From Planctomycetota bacterium (GTDB lineage: Bacteria; Planctomycetota; JAJSAM01; JAJVHW01): 64,000 bases of DNA. The translations under genes and the position numbers were made by a program. Below the pieces are notes generated by a model. That model worked only from the letters and a program-made list of their open reading frames with translations, ran no database searches and had not been told where the DNA came from. The first letter of the stretch is position 1, and each line of letters opens with the position of its first letter. This document shows, in pieces, positions 7,822-40,890 of the stretch. The stretch is from contig CBDFJG010000004.1 of NCBI GenBank assembly GCA_965248445.1, forward strand, positions 416,001-480,000. The letters run 5' to 3'.

Positions 7822-8685
7822 TCAACAATCGTTGTCGGTAGCGGCGGCCCTCTGCTGAAGATCCGCCAGGTGCGCCAGCAAGTCGCGGTAGTCCCAGGGC
7901 ACGTTGTGCCGCGCATGGAGGGACTTCAGAGCGCCTGTGTACCGCTCTGCCATGTCGCCGGTCTGCGACTCCGTGCGTGGGTCACAGAAGTAGGTGCGGC
8001 AAGCCAGCGGGCGGTGCTCCCGGGCGGTGCAGCGACGGTCCTTCCACGCGGGGCACAACCCGGACGACGCATCCCACTTCGCGAGGTCCACGCCCCGAGC
8101 CAGACGCTCGGCCTCGGCGCGCGACACGTAGAGGCGATGGCCTGCGCGGGGAAAGTCGCAGCAGTTGCCCGACGCGAAGCAGACGGGTGCCAGCGCGCGC
8201 ACCTCCGCGTCGACCTCCTCGAGCAGTGTCTCAACCGCCTCGCGAAAGCGAACCAGGCCCGCCCGGCGGTCAATCTCGTCGGCCGGGATCGTGTCTCCCC
8301 GACCGATCCCGCGACAGCTCTCGCCCTCGTGCTCGAACGACTCGCGATCGCGCACCACGCGTGACCAGAACGGATAGTCCCGGCACTGGTCCGGCTTGGC
8401 GGCGTTCACGCGGCAGGCCGTCGTGCCATCTCGGTTCCGTTCGAGCCACTCGCAGTCGGTGCTGCCCGGACGATCGAGCAGGACGGTCTCGCCCAGACTC
8501 TCGCGCGTGTGCTCCGCGCGGAACTCGGCGACCGACATCCCGACATGGTTGGCCAGCGCCTCCGTCTCTCGCGGCGAGAGCTGGACGACGCTCCCCTTAC
8601 CACCGCAGCAGTTCCCGCACCGCTCGCAGCGGAAGCGAAGACCCGCCGCGTACCAACGGGAGTCGCCGGGTGTGCTCTCGGTCAC
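7822..8685 (-). CDS. YkgJ-like cysteine-cluster (CxxCxxCC) protein with two tandem domains
   Basis: CERCGNCC...C...KPDQCRDYPFW, then CFASGNCC...RPLACRTYFC. GTG 8685 overlaps the kinase stop. Confidence 0.8.
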   Translation of the reverse strand: MTESTPGDSRWYAAGLRFRCERCGNCCGGKGSVVQLSPRETEALANHVGMSVAEFRAEHTRESLGETVLLDRPGSTDCEWLERNRDGTTACRVNAAKPDQCRDYPFWSRVVRDRESFEHEGESCRGIGRGDTIPADEIDRRAGLVRFREAVETLLEEVDAEVRALAPVCFASGNCCDFPRAGHRLYVSRAEAERLARGVDLAKWDASSGLCPAWKDRRCTAREHRPLACRTYFCDPRTESQTGDMAERYTGALKSLHARHNVPWDYRDLLAHLADLQQRAAATDNDC

Positions 8686-9857
8686 CGACGGCGGCGCTTG
8701 CCACGCCGCGCGCGATCGCCCGGGCGTCCCCGCGGACGCGGCGCGAGGTCGATCTTCTTCGCGACGAGCTTCGGCGCCTCGGCAATCGGCGCTGCCTCGA
8801 ACGCGACCTGGGTGACGACCTGAGGGACCGGCCCGCGCGCGGCGATGATGTCGCCGGCGACCGCCTGGATGTCCGCGACCAGCTCCGCCGCGGTCGCGTA
8901 CCGGTGCTCGCGGTCCTTCGACATCGCCTTGCGCACCACGAACTGCACCGGAGGCGAGATCTTGGTCATCTGGGCTGGCGTGAAAGCCAGCTCCTGCTTG
9001 ACCTGCGCGATGAGGACTTCCTCGCCCGTCCCCTCGAACGGCGTATCCCCGGTGAGCATGTGGAACAGTGAAGCGCCTAGGGAGTAGATGTCGGTCCTGC
9101 CGTCGACGTCGTCGCCGCGCGCCTGCTCGGGCGACATGTACTCGGGAGTGCCGACGGTCATCGACTCGGCCGTGTCCTCCCACATGCCCCGCACCACACG
9201 CGCCAGACCGAAGTCGATGATCCGGACATGCCCGTCCTGATCGACGACGAGGTTGGCGGGCTTGACGTCGCGATGGACGATGCCCTTCTGGTGCATGTGC
9301 TCGAGGGACAGCCCCACCTGCACGGCGATGTGCAGCGCGAGGCCTTCTTCCAGCGCAGCGCCATCGTCCAGTACGTCGAGCACCGAGATGCCGTCGACGA
9401 ATCCCATCGCGTAGAAGTCGACGCCGTCGGCTGACCCGTACTCGCGGCCGTCCACCAAGCCGTCGTGATCCAGCGCGAGCAGGATGTGCGCTTCGCGCTT
9501 GAAACGCAGACGGTAGCGCTCTTGCAGCCCGAACTCCGTGCGCAGGATCTTCAGCGCGACGCGCCTTGCGAGCGGCTCGTACGTCGCCTCGTAGACGATA
9601 GCCATGCCGCCCTCGCCGACCCTCCGGACGAGCTTGTAGTCTGCGAACGGCTGGTGCTTCTCGAGCGGGACGTCCTTGAGCACCCGCGCCTGTGTCCGCG
9701 TGAGCAGCCCGCGCTTGACGAGGAGGGCCAGGAGCGACACCGGCCGGTCCTCGGCGTGCCGCTGCTGCCAGGCGCGGAGACACTGTTCGGCCTCCTCGCG
9801 CAGGAGCACACCGGTCGCCACGAGGGGGCCTACCAACTGGAGTTCGCTCTGGTCCAC
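8682..9857 (-). CDS. Eukaryote-like (Hanks-type) Ser/Thr protein kinase
   Basis: GEGGMAIVY, VALK, HRDVKPAN, DFGLA, GTPEYMSPE and DIYSLG motifs. Start set at GTG 9857. Confidence 0.93.
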   Translation of the reverse strand: MDQSELQLVGPLVATGVLLREEAEQCLRAWQQRHAEDRPVSLLALLVKRGLLTRTQARVLKDVPLEKHQPFADYKLVRRVGEGGMAIVYEATYEPLARRVALKILRTEFGLQERYRLRFKREAHILLALDHDGLVDGREYGSADGVDFYAMGFVDGISVLDVLDDGAALEEGLALHIAVQVGLSLEHMHQKGIVHRDVKPANLVVDQDGHVRIIDFGLARVVRGMWEDTAESMTVGTPEYMSPEQARGDDVDGRTDIYSLGASLFHMLTGDTPFEGTGEEVLIAQVKQELAFTPAQMTKISPPVQFVVRKAMSKDREHRYATAAELVADIQAVAGDIIAARGPVPQVVTQVAFEAAPIAEAPKLVAKKIDLAPRPRGRPGDRARRGKRRRR

Positions 9858-9859
9858 GG

Positions 9860-10790
9860 CGTGAGGGTACCGCCGTCTGCCCAGCCCGCCGAGGGTGCGT
9901 GGGGGCGATCCACTTATCCCCGGCCAGACGAATGCCGATGACAGAAGTGGGGAGGCCCTCGGGGCCGGAAGACAGACCCGACCGCGCCGGATCGCGGCGA
10001 ACCCGTGGAACGGTGGAGCGGTTATCCGGAAGGATTTCCGGGACTCTTCGGCACGCGAGATGCGTCTTACCTGGGTAGAGGCATGAGTCCGCCCCTGAGG
10101 CGAACCTGCCCCGAGCTGGCTGAAACTGGTCAGGCTGGGAACTGGCCGAGCTGGGAACTGCGACTGACAACGAGGCGGATCACGCCTGCCCCGCACTGCG
10201 CTTCGGGCGCGCCCTCGGGCGCTCACGAACGGTGTCGCGGACCGCGGGCCCCGCGGGGAGCCTTTGAAAAGGCCGGACGGCGGCATCGAGCTGACGCTCG
10301 ACCCCACGTCTTCCTTCCTTTCAATGCCCTATCAGAGCGCCATGCACACAGGCCCGGGCGAGAGCCCGCCGCCTGAGGCGGAACTCCTTCCCACCTCATG
10401 CCCAACACCACTCGGGAGGACCGCCGGCCACGTTCGGCCCTTTCTAGGCTCCCCCAAAGACGATCCGCCTCGTCTCTTCTGGCGTCAACAGCTGACGCTG
10501 TTGACGCACTCGCCTGCGCGGCTGTCTGTGCCGCCGCGACCCTTCGGGCAGACCCGAGCCGGCTGTTCGCTGCGTCGCCTCGGATCGGCGCCACGAACGT
10601 GTCGCCTCACCTCCCCTCCTTGCGCCCGATCACACCCGGACGGTGGTCGCATCCGTTGCGTCGTCTCCGGCACCGCTCGGCTCCCCATTGGCTGATCGGG
10701 TAGTGGGAGGTCGCGATACGCGATACGCGCGATTGCGTCGGGTGTTACTGACAGGCGGGGTGCGTTCTCGGGTTCCGCGCACGTCTGTCG
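9860..10790 (+). ncRNA. Putative large structured non-coding RNA; family not recognised, ends approximate
   Basis: Intergenic with no credible CDS. Nested helices 10170-10181/10462-10473 (12 bp), 10255-10263/10446-10454 and 10271-10279/10431-10439; 11-bp hairpin 10482-10507. GNRA loops and G-U pairs favour the + strand. Confidence 0.55.
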
Positions 10791-10817
10791 CGGGTGTTGT
10801 GGACAATCGCGCTCAAC

Positions 10818-11909
10818 GTGAAGCCGCGAAGCACTCCGGAGACAACGAGCGAACTTGCGGACGATGCGGCCGTCGGCACATCCGACGTGGCACCGCTGCG
10901 CCACATCGATCCGCCGCACGTGCTCGAGCCGATGCTCGCTCTGTGGCCCGCACCTGCACTGCTGGTGGACAGCGACGGGGTCGTGCTCTCCGCGAACGAC
11001 GCGGCGGCGGCACTCCTCGACATCACCGCCGAGAGCGCCCACGGACGCATGCTCGCGGGACTTCTCGGTGTCCCGGCCACGCGCGCTCTGCTCGTCGGTG
11101 CCGGCTCCGCGCGGCTCGCCGCGGCCGCAGAACGCCCCGCGCTGAGGGCCCGCGCGCGGCGCACCGAGACGGGCGACGTCGTCGTGGGCTTCCACGTCGA
11201 AGACGGCCCCGCCGTCGACCTGGAGCACGCCGAGCGTCTCGCCTCGATCGGCGAACTGCTGTCCAGCGTCGCGCATGAGCTCAACAACCCGCTCACGAGC
11301 GTGCTCGGCTACGCCGAGTTGCTGCTCGCCGACGATCACCCGGACCTGCCCCGGGACGAGCTCCAGCGGATCCACGACGAGGCGGCCCGCTGCCGCCGCA
11401 TCGTCCAGAACCTGCTCGACCTCTCTCGCGCCGAACGTGTCGAGTCGCGCCCACTGCTCGTGGGCGACGTCGTCGCACGCGTCGTGGAATTCCGTTCGTA
11501 TGCAGCCCATGTTGCCGGCGTCACGCTCCGGGGCGAGTGCGAAGAGGACCTGCCCGTGATGGTGGGCGACTTCCACCGGCTCGTGCAGGCCGTGCTGAAC
11601 CTCGTCACGAACGCGGAGCACGCCGTCGCAGGACGGGCGGCGGGCCGCAGCGTCACGGTACGCGCCCGGCGCGCGGGCCCAAGGCTCGCGATCGAAGTCG
11701 AGGACAACGGAGCCGGCGTGCGCCCGGAAGACGCGGAGCGCATCTTCGAGCCGTTCGTCACGACCAAGCCGCGCGGGCGCGGAACGGGCCTCGGGCTCTC
11801 CCTCGTGCGGAACACCGCGATCGCTCACGGCGGCGACGTGCGTGTCGAACGCAGCGCCGGCGGCGGCGCCCGCTTCGTGATCGAACTGCCGGCCGCCACC
11901 GACGTCTAG
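10818..11909 (+). CDS. PAS-domain sensor histidine kinase (NtrB-like)
   Basis: AHELNNPL H-box, NLVTNA N-box, DNGAG, FEPFVTTK and GTGLGL motifs. Confidence 0.93.
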   Translation: MKPRSTPETTSELADDAAVGTSDVAPLRHIDPPHVLEPMLALWPAPALLVDSDGVVLSANDAAAALLDITAESAHGRMLAGLLGVPATRALLVGAGSARLAAAAERPALRARARRTETGDVVVGFHVEDGPAVDLEHAERLASIGELLSSVAHELNNPLTSVLGYAELLLADDHPDLPRDELQRIHDEAARCRRIVQNLLDLSRAERVESRPLLVGDVVARVVEFRSYAAHVAGVTLRGECEEDLPVMVGDFHRLVQAVLNLVTNAEHAVAGRAAGRSVTVRARRAGPRLAIEVEDNGAGVRPEDAERIFEPFVTTKPRGRGTGLGLSLVRNTAIAHGGDVRVERSAGGGARFVIELPAATDV

Positions 11910-15742: not shown

Positions 15743-15803
15743 CTGCCCCGTTTCGCGTCCCGCCTTGGCAGTCAGGGCGTATGCTCCTCCCGTGCGACTG
15801 GCG

Positions 15804-16340
15804 ATGTTCTGTCCGCGCTGCGGCGCCCCGCTCTCGGAGCGGATTCCGGAACTGGACGATCGGCCGCGCAAGGTCTGCTCCGAGTGCGCCTTCGTCGTGT
15901 ACGTCAACCCGAAGGTCGCCGCGGGCACGGTTCCGGTGCGCGATGACGGTCAGATCGCGCTCGTGCGGCGAGCCGTGGAGCCGCAGGTCGGTCTGTGGTC
16001 CTGGCCGTGCGGATACCTCGAGAACGACGAGACCGTCGAGGACTGCGCACGGCGTGAGACCCACGAGGAGACGGGCGTCGAGGTGTTACTCGGCGCTCTC
16101 CTGGGCATCTACAGCTACCCGCAGGACGCCCGCGACGCCACGCTCGCGGGCAGCGGTCTCGTGATCGTGTCGTGGGCGGCGCGCGTCACGTCGATCGAGC
16201 TGGCGCCGGGCTCGGACGTGCAGGAGACCGCGTGGTTCGCCCCCGCCGACATTCCGTGGGACGAGCTGGCGTTCGATTCGTCCCACCGCGCCCTGCGTGA
16301 CTTCCTCGACGGCACGCGCGATTTCGACGGCACAGCATGA
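15804..16340 (+). CDS. NUDIX hydrolase with N-terminal Zn ribbon
   Basis: MFCPRCG...CSEC...YVNP; Nudix box GYLENDETVEDCARRETHEETG. Confidence 0.9.
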   Translation: MFCPRCGAPLSERIPELDDRPRKVCSECAFVVYVNPKVAAGTVPVRDDGQIALVRRAVEPQVGLWSWPCGYLENDETVEDCARRETHEETGVEVLLGALLGIYSYPQDARDATLAGSGLVIVSWAARVTSIELAPGSDVQETAWFAPADIPWDELAFDSSHRALRDFLDGTRDFDGTA

Positions 16341-17287: not shown

Positions 17288-18787
17288 GTAACCGTTCACC
17301 CCTTCGTCGCGAGCCAGGATCCAGATCGTTCGGCCATCGGTCGATCAAGATGTTGTGGGCGAGCGGCAGGACGAGGATCTGCGGGCGATGGTCGAGGGCC
17401 TTCTGGCCTGGATCGAGGAGCTGGAGCGTCGCGAAGCGAAGCATCTGCGCCGCATCGACGAGCTCGAGTCGCGTCTGAAGCGTGACTCCCGCAACAGCTC
17501 GAGGCCTCCGTCGTCGGACCCGGCGTGGTCCAAGCGCCGTCGCGGCCGAAGGCCGCGTAGCGGTCGCAAGCAGGGCGGACAGCCGGGCCATGAGGGCACG
17601 GCGCGCGAGCTGGTGGATCCGTCCAACGTCGATGAGACCAAGGAGCACCGTCCCGACCTCTGCGACGCGTGCGGACACGACGATCTCGAGCAGGGCATCG
17701 GCGATCCGTACCGGCACCAGGTGACGGTGCTCCCGCGCGTGCTCGTCACGGTGCGGGAGCACCGGCTGCACAAGGCGCGGTGCCGGCGCTGTCGTGCGGT
17801 CACGACGGCGGTCCTGCCCGATGGCGTGCCGACCGGGGCCTTCGGTCCGCGGCTGACCACACTTGCCGGCGCGCTGCGCGGCGTGTACCGCGTGAGCGTG
17901 CGGGAGACGCAGCGGCTGCTCGGTGAGATCTTCGGTGTGAAGATGTCGCTGGGCAAGATCAGCGACTGTGAGCGTCGGCTCAGTGACGCTCTGCACTCGT
18001 CGTACCTCGAAGCCCTCGGGGCAGTCCGCACGTCGCTGCGAGCCAACGTGGACGAGACGTCGTGGAAGGAACGGGGCCGGGTGTGCTGGCTGTGGGCGGC
18101 GGAGAGCGAGCACGCCACAGCCTTCGGGATCGATCGCCGCCGCAGTGCCAAGGCGAAAGGGCGGCTGATCGGGCGGCGCTTCGGTGGCACGGTGATCAGC
18201 GACCGGATGGGTGCCTACGAGTCACACCCACTTGCCCGCCGCCAGCTCTGCTGGGCGCACATCGAGCGCGCCTTCCGTGCGCTGGCCGAAGGCCCGCGAG
18301 GACATCGCCGCTTCGGCAACAAGGGCGTCATGATCGCGCAGTCGGTCATGCGCAGCTACCGGCTCTTCGGTGAGCACGGCGACCGTGACCGGCTGCAAGG
18401 CGAAGCCGCTGTGCTGCGCGGACGGCTCGAGCGACTGATCGCGAACGACGACTCGGCTCTGGCCAACCATCTGCGCCCCCGCGTGGTCGCCCTCTTCACC
18501 TATGCGCGGACCCAGGACGTGAGTCCGACGAACAACGCCGCCGAGCGCGCGGTCCGCAAAGCGGTGCTCTGGCGCAAGGGCTCCTTCGGAAGCCAGTCCG
18601 CTCGCGGACTCCGCTTCGCCGAGCGCGTGTTGACCGCCGCGGCCACGCTGCGACGCCGTGGCAACCAAGTCTTCGACTTCCTCGCCGACTCGGTCGCCGC
18701 GCACCTCACCGGCGCCGACCCGCCCGTCATGGTCCCGCTGCCCGTCGCACGCTGAGGCTCACACGCTGTCAAGGGGTGAACGGTTAC
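17288..18787 (+). mobile_element. IS66-family insertion sequence, single-ORF type, 1500 bp
   Basis: 17-bp perfect TIRs GTAACCGTTCACCCCTT / AAGGGGTGAACGGTTAC. The flanks TGATCTGC and GCTGAACG are not duplicated. Confidence 0.92.
17355..18755 (+). CDS. IS66-family DDE transposase (TnpC-like)
   Basis: DSRNSSRPPSSD, GGQPGH, CDAC/CRRC, VDET, QLCWAH and PTNNAAERAVR motifs. Confidence 0.93.
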   Translation: MGERQDEDLRAMVEGLLAWIEELERREAKHLRRIDELESRLKRDSRNSSRPPSSDPAWSKRRRGRRPRSGRKQGGQPGHEGTARELVDPSNVDETKEHRPDLCDACGHDDLEQGIGDPYRHQVTVLPRVLVTVREHRLHKARCRRCRAVTTAVLPDGVPTGAFGPRLTTLAGALRGVYRVSVRETQRLLGEIFGVKMSLGKISDCERRLSDALHSSYLEALGAVRTSLRANVDETSWKERGRVCWLWAAESEHATAFGIDRRRSAKAKGRLIGRRFGGTVISDRMGAYESHPLARRQLCWAHIERAFRALAEGPRGHRRFGNKGVMIAQSVMRSYRLFGEHGDRDRLQGEAAVLRGRLERLIANDDSALANHLRPRVVALFTYARTQDVSPTNNAAERAVRKAVLWRKGSFGSQSARGLRFAERVLTAAATLRRRGNQVFDFLADSVAAHLTGADPPVMVPLPVAR

Positions 18788-39060: not shown

Positions 39061-39081
39061 TCGCCTCTTCGACACCATTCA

Positions 39082-39110
39082 CGGGCCCCGGCGCACTCCG
39101 CCGGGGCCCG
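39082..39110 (+). terminator. 12-bp GC hairpin after the Trx-TPR gene
   Basis: CGGGCCCCGGCG-CACTC-CGCCGGGGCCCG; weak U-tract. Confidence 0.55.
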
Positions 39111-39186
39111 CTCTCGTTGCGGCCGGGATACGCTTGCCGCCGTTCCGCCGAAGGTCTCGGCGGACACGGCTCTGCCGGAGGAGACC

Positions 39187-40635
39187 GTGCGCGAGGGTCC
39201 GGCGTCCGATCTCACGGGCGTGTCCGAGTTCTTCGATCACGTGGTTCGGTCGCTGGTCCACAGGCGCCCCGAGGGCCGATTTCAGTCGGCAATGGCCCTT
39301 GCCGACGCGCTGTTCAAGGGCGAGTCGTCAGACTGGTGGCAACGGAGGAACTGCCCAGCCGCTGCTGCCGCGGACGCTCGGGCAGCGCCTACGAGCACGC
39401 AGCCACGCACGTCCTTCACGAAGACGGGTCTTCTGATGTTTCACGCGGATGCCCTCCGCGGTCGCGATCGGATGATCGATGCGCTCAGAGTGCTCGATGA
39501 CGCGGCGCGGGCGCAGCCACGGGATCCCGCAATCCGAAACGCGATCGGGCTGTGGTTCCGGGACGCTGGGGACCCAAAGCGCGCCAGAGCCGAACTGCTC
39601 GCCGCCATAGAACTGGCACCGCCTGACCCTCATGGACGTGAGCTTGAGTCGATGGCGAGGTCCAACCTCGGACTCGTTTACATGGACACGGGCCAACTGC
39701 CAGAGGCCCGCGAGCAGTTGCGGCTCCGTCTGGAGTACCTGGATCGCCACCCGGATCCACGCGCGCGAGCCGCGGTTCTGAACAGTCTTGGAAGCGTGTA
39801 TTTTCGGGAACAGCGGTACGCGCAAGCGCGCGAACACTATCAGCTAGCGTGGAGGAGCGCGCGCGCCTGCGGGTATGAGCGTGTCGCGATCGTGAGCCTA
39901 TCGAACCTGGGTAACGTCGCCTATGCGCTGGGCAACTACAACGACGCAGAGCGCCTCTATCGGACGAGCCGAAAGCTCGCTTCCCGGGCCGATGATGTGG
40001 GAGCAGTCGCGTCTGCCCGAGCGAACGAGGCGGGCGTGCTCGTGGCACTTGGGCGCCTTGCGGATGCTCAGCGACTGTATGCGACTTGCCTCGAAGTCGC
40101 CCGCGGGCGAAGTGCCATACGGGACGTCGTACTCGCTCATCTGAACCTCGGAGCGGTGTTCACCTTGCTTGCCCAAGACGTCGCCGCCGAGGCGTCGCTG
40201 TTGGACGCAGTGGAGATGGCGCGTGATCGGGGTCTCGGGGACTTGGAGCCGTTGGCACGTCTCGGCCTTGGCGAATACTTCGCGAGCCGGGGGGACGACT
40301 CCAAAGCGATGGAGTGCTTCTGCCGGGCACTGCTGGCGCTGGGACCGGAGCGTCGTGCTCAATTGGCGCAGGCCCACCTCGGAATCGGACTCGTTGAGGC
40401 TCGCAACGACGACGCGCCTGATGCTCGGCGCGAGTTGTCGCTCGCTCGGGACCTGGCTTTGGAGGCGGGCGGCACGGGCGTTCGCGGTCTGTTCTCGGGC
40501 GCGCGGGCCTCGCGGCTGCTGGCCGAGCGCATCGCCGAAGGCGCAGGTGTCACCGCCCATCGAGCGCCGGTCCTGGGCGTTCTGAGGCGGCCGAACTCGA
40601 GCCCAGGGGGTGGGCGACGTTTGGGCCCACCCTGA
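39187..40635 (+). CDS. TPR-repeat protein starting with a Ser/Thr kinase C-terminal remnant (possibly a pseudogene)
   Basis: RPEGRFQSAMALADAL resembles kinase subdomain XI; repeated (S/N)NLG.VY TPRs; more A/T-ending codons than its neighbours. Confidence 0.6.
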   Translation: MREGPASDLTGVSEFFDHVVRSLVHRRPEGRFQSAMALADALFKGESSDWWQRRNCPAAAAADARAAPTSTQPRTSFTKTGLLMFHADALRGRDRMIDALRVLDDAARAQPRDPAIRNAIGLWFRDAGDPKRARAELLAAIELAPPDPHGRELESMARSNLGLVYMDTGQLPEAREQLRLRLEYLDRHPDPRARAAVLNSLGSVYFREQRYAQAREHYQLAWRSARACGYERVAIVSLSNLGNVAYALGNYNDAERLYRTSRKLASRADDVGAVASARANEAGVLVALGRLADAQRLYATCLEVARGRSAIRDVVLAHLNLGAVFTLLAQDVAAEASLLDAVEMARDRGLGDLEPLARLGLGEYFASRGDDSKAMECFCRALLALGPERRAQLAQAHLGIGLVEARNDDAPDARRELSLARDLALEAGGTGVRGLFSGARASRLLAERIAEGAGVTAHRAPVLGVLRRPNSSPGGGRRLGPP

Positions 40636-40890
40636 GGCGCCGTCCTAAGTCGTTTGCCTGCCTCACGGAATGGCGCGATCGGCGGACACCCTTGCGCCCA
40701 CTCTCGGGGCTCGCGGCTGGCAGGCTCCGGCTGCGCGCGTGTTACATTGTGACACGGCCGGCGGCGTAGCTCAGTCGAGGGGGTACGTCGTGTTGGAGCG
40801 GACGACCCCCACCCGGGGGGACCCATCTCGCGCAGGCTGTGCCGGCTGAACCGAAACGGAGATCCGAAAAATCGAAAACCGAGGATCGCG

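Follow-up and report, generated by a model that had tools for sequence, protein, structure and literature searches.

In a 64,000-nt stretch of a Planctomycetota genome (contig CBDFJG010000004.1, positions 416,001 to 480,000; the window), the gap between two divergent kinase genes holds a member of a real and apparently undescribed family of small RNAs (sRNAs), which are about 110–410 nt long among the homologs and about 400 nt long here. The predicted primary transcript is placed at 10075..10475 on the + strand by the position of its promoter, by folding energy and by the lack of a conserved reading frame, with a 3' boundary that is uncertain in the window's own family of loci (f1). Comparison of homologous loci shows a non-coding, single-copy, + strand RNA in which a stem is predicted to hold an invariant C/U loop open. 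A preliminary description of the window, made from the sequence alone, had proposed a + strand, structured non-coding RNA with nested long-range helices at this site, and that part of it is upheld by the homologs, by covariation and by the absence of a conserved frame. The gap itself spans 9858-10793 (936 nt by our own gene calls); it had been called the largest intergenic gap and is real, but ranks third by size in the window.

The conserved part of the gap is much shorter than the gap. A DNA search of 60 relatives gave 15 matches, 13 of them on one core (10257-10444) and two unrelated. When 21 homologous loci were compared by blastn, 10266-10445 matched in all 21 and a promoter patch (10041-10075) in two, while 9860-10040, 10076-10265, 10446-10510 and 10511-10790 matched in none. 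Large non-coding RNAs of the OLE, GOLLD and ROOL kind have a structure conserved over at least 600 nt, and the whole interval had been proposed to be a single multi-domain RNA of 0.9 kb in this size class. The likeness lies in the intergenic position, the + strand and the long-range helices, and both the nested 12-bp and 9-bp helices and a gap of sufficient length do exist. However, the RNA is conserved over 180 nt only, in unpaired loops, its homologs are far smaller, and no Rfam family matches it. Four of the six pieces have no counterpart in the 21 homologs. On the 5' side, about 215 nt consist of the promoter with the DNA in front of it; on the 3' side, about 300 nt find no match in relatives, whose next gene starts about 130-460 nt from the loop. 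Moreover, the promoter lies inside the interval, and the whole 931 nt fold no better than shuffled sequence (z -1.31 on the + strand, -1.23 on the - strand). The 0.9 kb RNA is thus largely refuted, and we regard it as scarcely credible. Because the conserved part is a single-stranded loop, it bears the signature of a small regulatory RNA and not of a large RNA with tertiary structure.

Folding energy is concentrated in the same place. The segment 10166-10475 folds at z about -5.0 to -5.2, with none of 100 shuffles as good, and since its reverse strand also scores z -4.5, the strand is not given by energy alone. The longer segment 10076-10475 has z -2.1, and 9860-10075 (z +0.94) and 10510-10790 (z +0.45) hold no structure beyond chance. 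All eight helices named in the preliminary description are present and fully paired, and its three hairpins are there too. The nesting had been thought hard to explain by chance. Only two pairings, the 12-bp one at 10170/10473 and the hairpin of 11 bp at 10482-10507, stand out and approach significance (p about 0.04-0.05), the others being ordinary for DNA of 68% GC: 16 perfect inverted repeats of at least 8 bp were seen vs 11.7 in shuffles (p 0.15), and three of at least 9 bp vs 3.35.

Homologs separate these helices further. The outer helices 10170-10181/10462-10473 and 10255-10263/10446-10454 (10170..10473, +) are found in five of the nine family loci, the window included; the 12-bp one has a counterpart of changed sequence in L009, L012 and L013 and a shorter one in L010, and the inner helix 10271/10439 is kept in all nine. 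The helices 9958/10108 and 10041/10085 exist in the DNA but are impossible in the predicted transcript, because one arm of each lies upstream of its start near 10075. The UGAC hairpin 10286-10301 is likewise present, but competes with a stem that the homologs support (stem A, below). The 11-bp hairpin is a dispersed 26-nt palindrome (10482..10507), with two near copies elsewhere in the genome (G000:C3:1306440-1306472 and C4:1541361-1541389) and none in the homologs; it may cap the 3' end of the RNA, with no U-tract behind it.

The core (10266..10445, +), present in 21 of 21 loci, consists of a closing stem and a three-way junction, with 35 pairs, 90.4% of cells paired and six pairs showing double-sided changes. 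Covariation of the f1 closing stem is weaker, its pair count being reached by 66 of 500 shuffles. Stem-loop A (10292..10342, +) follows a 5' domain that varies between loci. Its stem has nine pairs, 91.4% of 198 cells paired and seven pairs with double-sided changes, and its covariation score was reached by none of 500 shuffles in a control that ignores relatedness, while slid controls were 27-53% paired. Among the 198 cells, 32 are G-U or U-G on the + strand. This stem closes C/U loop 1, a near-invariant CCCACGTCTTCCTTCCTT at 10303-10320 followed by ATGCCC; all 25 aligned rows, which represent two classes, agree at 12 loop columns in succession. The loop (31-50 nt) is predicted to be unpaired in all 22 loci (mean probability 0.70-0.97). 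Stem-loop B (10350..10373, +), with a GAGA tetraloop, is variable in sequence; a hairpin stands at this place in the homolog folds, with 9-11 bp in families f2 and f3. Stem-loop C (10377..10425, +) has 10 pairs, 87.6% paired and with mostly one-sided changes, and its C-rich loop 2 repeats the CCCAC and ATGCCC of loop 1. This second GCCCA is unpaired at 0.72-0.99 in nine of nine family loci, and GCCCA recurs in open loops of all three families although their hairpins differ. The rows L035-L037 (duplicates) and L021 and L023 (inside genes or unrelated) were omitted from the alignments, as were L022 from alignment A4 and L106 from all.

Such conservation might in principle stem from a small protein gene or a site acting at the DNA level. 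The complement of the loop resembles a purine-rich ribosome site followed by GTG, and both loops contain ATG. However, no conserved frame starts from either the loop ATG or the complementary GTG (the frames run from 2 to >500 aa and share no sequence), the spacing of the two loops keeps the frame, as a multiple of 3, in just four of nine f1 loci and breaks it in the other five, and the compensatory and G-U changes fit pairing in RNA, all of which makes this explanation highly unlikely. The open reading frames of the gap had been regarded as shadows, and no frame is conserved in the homologs on either strand.

The family is widespread in the window's class. The loop motif is exact in 13 of 17 class genomes (0 matches for the reversed control) and occurs in eight metagenome contigs, with no match among viral contigs; a phage or mobile element was rejected on the latter ground and on the single copy per genome. 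With a covariance model, 14 of the 17 each gave a single strong copy. The fifteenth carrier, G003, has an expanded copy beside an ortholog of the Ser/Thr kinase (L106:1745-2050, - strand; z -2.9), in which the conserved closing stem encloses tandem CUUC repeats, with 10 CUUC and six GCCCA words in all; CCCAA repeats are found in G002. The RNA is thereby single-copy in 15 of 17 class genomes. None was found in G011 (79% complete) or G015 (93%, with 7% contamination), where the best matches to the kinase sit beside other genes and appear to be paralogs. In a second class, three of 40 genomes were matched by the model and a fourth by pattern, each of them carrying stem, loop and divergent kinase. 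The homologs fold as units of about 220-410 nt in the window's class and about 110-150 nt in the second one. Phylum samples of 151, 401 and 401 overlapping genomes gave no other convincing copy: model R1 made two matches outside the class among the 151, one true (L066) and one inside a gene (L067), and the pattern matches outside the class (13 and 10 in two scans) were judged chance, save those in G132 and G073, which have stem, loop and kinase. Since R1 missed the expanded copy in G003, diverged copies elsewhere may have been missed too.

Upstream of the RNA lies a sigma54-type -24/-12 promoter (10048..10067, +; GG at 10050-51, GC at 10062-63), recognised by its spacing in homologs and its matrix rank. 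In 20 of 22 loci, and in G003 as well, the + strand shows the pattern GG-N10-GC, which we take to be the sigma54 -24/-12 consensus, at 76-253 nt before the loop (with an exact GC in 18; one truncated locus and one poor one). With a matrix built from 19 homolog sites, the window's own site excluded, 10048-10067 ranks first in 5.4 Mb, at 21.3 bits vs 18.1 for the next-best genome site. The genome also holds rpoN and 13 full-length sigma54-activator domains, so that, at the genomic level, the promoter, the sigma factor and the activators of a sigma54-dependent sRNA are all found, the promoter not being clear in the second class. A conserved box (9934..9943), with a similar 10-mer seen by eye in L009-L013, L044 and L106, precedes the promoter by about 115 nt and is a candidate sigma54 activator site. 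In f2 and f3 a different box, TGA(T/C)AAG, was seen by eye about 200-320 nt upstream of the loop (L015, L016, L019, L020, L017, L018, L038-L042) and may serve an activator or the kinase promoter. Sigma54 RNA polymerase, switched on by an enhancer-binding protein at the box 9934..9943, very probably transcribes the RNA as its own unit from about 10075; the transcript could then be trimmed to a core of 160-180 nt. Most f2 and f3 copies end in a hairpin and T-run, and no + strand terminator was found in the window. These ends, together with a downstream gene that varies or is convergent, point to an independent transcription unit.

The genes on either side invite another view, in which the RNA is a cis-regulatory leader, such as a riboswitch or attenuator, that serves either the histidine kinase downstream or the kinase encoded on the opposite strand. 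The former, a PAS-HisKA-HATPase gene by Pfam (10794..11909, +; start possibly 10818), follows the RNA in eight of nine f1 loci, the remaining one being cut short, and in f1 only. The latter, a Ser/Thr protein kinase gene of 391 aa (8682..9857, -; Pfam Pkinase, E 7.5e-44), has its best match no farther than about 1.3 kb from the RNA in 12 of the 15 carriers of the class and in four of four second-class loci. The lack of a terminator in the window would suit a leader, as would a - strand open frame that runs from 10307 into the kinase in the window's genome. This view is nevertheless improbable. Downstream genes differ in G003, f2, f3 and f53 and are convergent in f3; the Ser/Thr kinase lies on a separate contig in two f2 carriers and 8.5 kb off in one; the - strand frame varies from 6 to 541 aa and shifts between loci; and promoter, G-U pairs and T-runs all indicate the + strand. 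Furthermore, a word at 9864..9869 (-), one of the top five over-represented hexamers in 2344 non-redundant leaders, is likely the -10 element of the kinase promoter, and as it sits beside the start codon, the kinase mRNA should exclude the RNA.

For an independent sRNA of this kind, the most attractive function, which we hold tentatively and at slightly less than an even chance, is that of an Hfq-independent trans-acting regulator that pairs with mRNAs through redundant anti-Shine-Dalgarno loops. The features expected of a trans-acting sRNA are present, namely a non-coding transcript, its own transcription unit and a conserved unpaired seed, and no match to Hfq was found in the 92%-complete genome. 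Shine-Dalgarno sites occur in 39% of leaders vs 19% in coding DNA, and GGAGGT is over-represented. Granted the sigma54-driven unit, the chances are about equal for and against the open loops being redundant anti-Shine-Dalgarno seeds, in which the overlapping CUUCCU of loop 1 would pair with AGGAGG via one G-U and the CACCUC of loop 2 with GAGGUG. The loops would then occupy ribosome-binding sites on several mRNAs, with no need of Hfq, and stop their translation in the manner of the cuckoo/NfeR1 RNAs. In this way the RNA would answer a sigma54 signal by quickly repressing a set of genes, probably as part of a circuit that includes the linked divergent Ser/Thr kinase.

Contigs assembled from RNA-labelled sequencing runs give a hint of expression, not proof. 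Seven such runs held a small share of the sequence words, and of four runs compared, three from different studies have contigs confined to the core, at 10278-10437 (with 3 substitutions and 2 gaps), 10278-10416 and 10333-10423, all from close relatives. Run X7 left the core uncovered. On the genes to either side lay only short pieces that run on unlike the window; neither this lack of cover nor the contig end at 10278 shared by X1 and X2 was counted as evidence.

Several results weigh against the proposed sRNA and its mode of action. The window's own lowest-energy fold favours the UGAC hairpin over stem A. The RNA-run contigs carry neither strand nor level and could include DNA, and the runs had been chosen because the sequence occurs in them. 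The four second-class loci show no clear sigma54 motif, and rpoN was not found in one carrier, G013. No conserved target emerged from searches of the genome, its leaders and the relatives. The longest perfect complement of loop 1 elsewhere in the genome is 13 nt and lies inside a gene, across 800 sampled start regions the loop has no pairing advantage over 12 shuffled versions of it, leaders show no enrichment of words complementary to those of the loop, and the flanking genes of 26 loci hold no shared or conserved target site. Two of the top 30 predicted targets were compared in relatives, and both were rejected. The top one, a DUF533 gene with a duplex of -34.6 kcal/mol over the Shine-Dalgarno site and start codon, was matched in only two of 17 class genomes, one of them weakly. 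The other, glutamine synthetase III, is present in seven of 17 class and none of five f53 genomes, and its site, about 110 nt from the likely start, is not conserved, a loose GGCA..GGAGGT pattern occurring in three of seven leaders. An enrichment of GGGCAT in leaders was also rejected, as it came from a transposase leader in 73 copies and vanished once duplicates were removed.

These failures leave room for a protein partner. Decoy RNAs of the CsrB/Rsm type carry many GGA loop motifs and have CsrA as their partner; membership in that group was rejected, as the + strand loops here are C/U-rich and the genome has no CsrA match. In a decoy of another kind, comparable in principle to CsrB/RsmY, CrcZ or GlmY, the GCCC(A/U) and CUUC loops would soak up an RNA-binding regulator when sigma54 is activated, an alternative we consider possible but doubtful. 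It would account for the second GCCCA staying in an open loop in all three families despite their differing hairpins, for the repeat arrays of G003 and G002 and for the lack of a long or conserved complementary target, and GlmY, as far as the portions consulted show, is a precedent for a sigma54-driven decoy under a two-component system (PMC6075780, PMC4152352). Against it, the genome (92% complete) has no match to CsrA or Hfq, leaders show no excess of the loop words in the sense orientation, no candidate protein was identified, and base-pairing RNAs such as NfeR1 carry redundant loops as well, according to the part of PMC10746234 consulted. Proteins with an RRM domain were rejected as the partner: just 11 of 17 class genomes yielded any, and none turned up in five carriers, among them a genome that is 98% complete. 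The more specific version, in which an expandable GCCC(A/U)/CUUC array titrates an RNA-binding protein of an unrecognised family and is wired to the kinase linked across two classes, is a little less probable again. Work on RRM-bound sRNAs (PMC11697453) leaves our reading unchanged.

As a separate observation, RRM genes (PF00076) have a conserved, structured leader of about 110 nt directly upstream at seven loci in four f1 genomes (L146:1375-1499 on the + strand, and L142, L143, L147, L149, L153 and L158). It has 23 consensus pairs, three with double-sided changes, its outer helix covers the start codon, and no Rfam family matches it; it is a candidate new cis-regulatory RNA, perhaps autoregulatory.

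Compared with known systems, the RNA resembles sigma54-dependent sRNAs in the way it appears to work and belongs to no family tested. Rfam 15 gave no match in the window, where a strong hit would have made the RNA a known one; the best E-value in 9500-11200 was 0.47, and no match lay over the RNA in six homolog loci. Identity with 6S, RNase P, tmRNA or SRP RNA was rejected, each being found over its cut-off elsewhere in the genome.

The nearest structural parallels, judged from the portions of the sources consulted, are the cuckoo or alpha-r14 RNAs, with two to four adjacent hairpins that each bear CCUCCUCCC in the loop (PMC4615179), and NfeR1, which silences mRNAs independently of Hfq through three redundant anti-Shine-Dalgarno loops on variable stems (PMC10746234). 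Like these RNAs and CcsR1, the window RNA has several pyrimidine-rich, anti-Shine-Dalgarno-like loops on stems of variable sequence. Its loop motif, however, is not CCUCCUCCC (alignments A1-A4), and its loops measure 31-50 nt and are mutually unlike, its promoter is of the sigma54 type, and in f1 it forms a nested three-way junction. Silencing at start regions in the cuckoo manner is possible from the complementarity between loop and Shine-Dalgarno site, with no conserved target found.

With respect to control, three sigma54-linked sRNAs are relevant, again as described in the consulted parts of the sources. For Pxr of myxobacteria, a stem-loop sRNA processed from longer forms, both a sigma54 response regulator and a histidine kinase are required (PMC10217877). 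It shares with the window RNA the link to sigma54 and the stem-loop form, and differs in that it comes from another phylum, while the constant neighbour here is a Ser/Thr kinase and Rfam gives no match. GlmY of Enterobacteriaceae combines a sigma54 promoter, upstream activating sites, two-component control and a role as protein decoy (PMC6075780, PMC4152352), whereas the window RNA has a histidine kinase as neighbour in one family only, again no Rfam match, and no evidence of a partner like GlmZ/RapZ, for which no search was made. By analogy with Pxr and GlmY, activation by a two-component system may be supposed here too. CJnc230/FlmE of Campylobacter jejuni is RpoN-dependent, processed, and represses mRNAs with a single-stranded anti-Shine-Dalgarno motif (PMC11187230); it is cut from the flgE mRNA and measures 98 nt, in contrast to the window RNA, which has its own promoter and is 2-4 times longer. 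Among planctomycete motifs, Rhodopirellula-1 (PMC2864571) looks different, its three supplement alignment rows and diagram text, on which the comparison was made, having no C/U loop. Literature searches on planctomycete sRNAs and this motif, which did not extend to subscription journals and most supplements, listed no description of it, and motif catalogues in supplements could still hold it.

These searches found little on RNA regulation in this phylum, for which the family offers a class-wide riboregulator with promoter, structure and seed defined. The identity of the loop, down to the letter, in three families implies that its partner is strongly conserved; finding that partner would reveal either Hfq-free sRNA pairing in this lineage or a new regulatory RNA-binding protein.

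Some observations concern the surroundings of the RNA. A 287-aa gene with a CxxCxxCC domain (7822-8685, -) overlaps the stop codon of the Ser/Thr kinase by 4 nt and is likely co-transcribed with it. The most strongly over-represented leader words of the genome are TA-N-N-N-T hexamers within 60 nt of start codons, which suggests many short-leader promoters. The largest gap of the window (39061-40890, 1.8 kb) reads like a lower-GC gene missed by the codon model, and thus holds a candidate gene, possibly an acquired one. ARAGORN places a tRNA-Ser(CGA) at 16166-16255 (+) inside a predicted NUDIX-like gene (15792-16340), a call that is possibly spurious. Finally, the leader of a transposase-like gene (17355-18755) recurs about 40 times and that of a second one has 73 identical copies, so the genome appears to be heavily loaded with insertion sequences.
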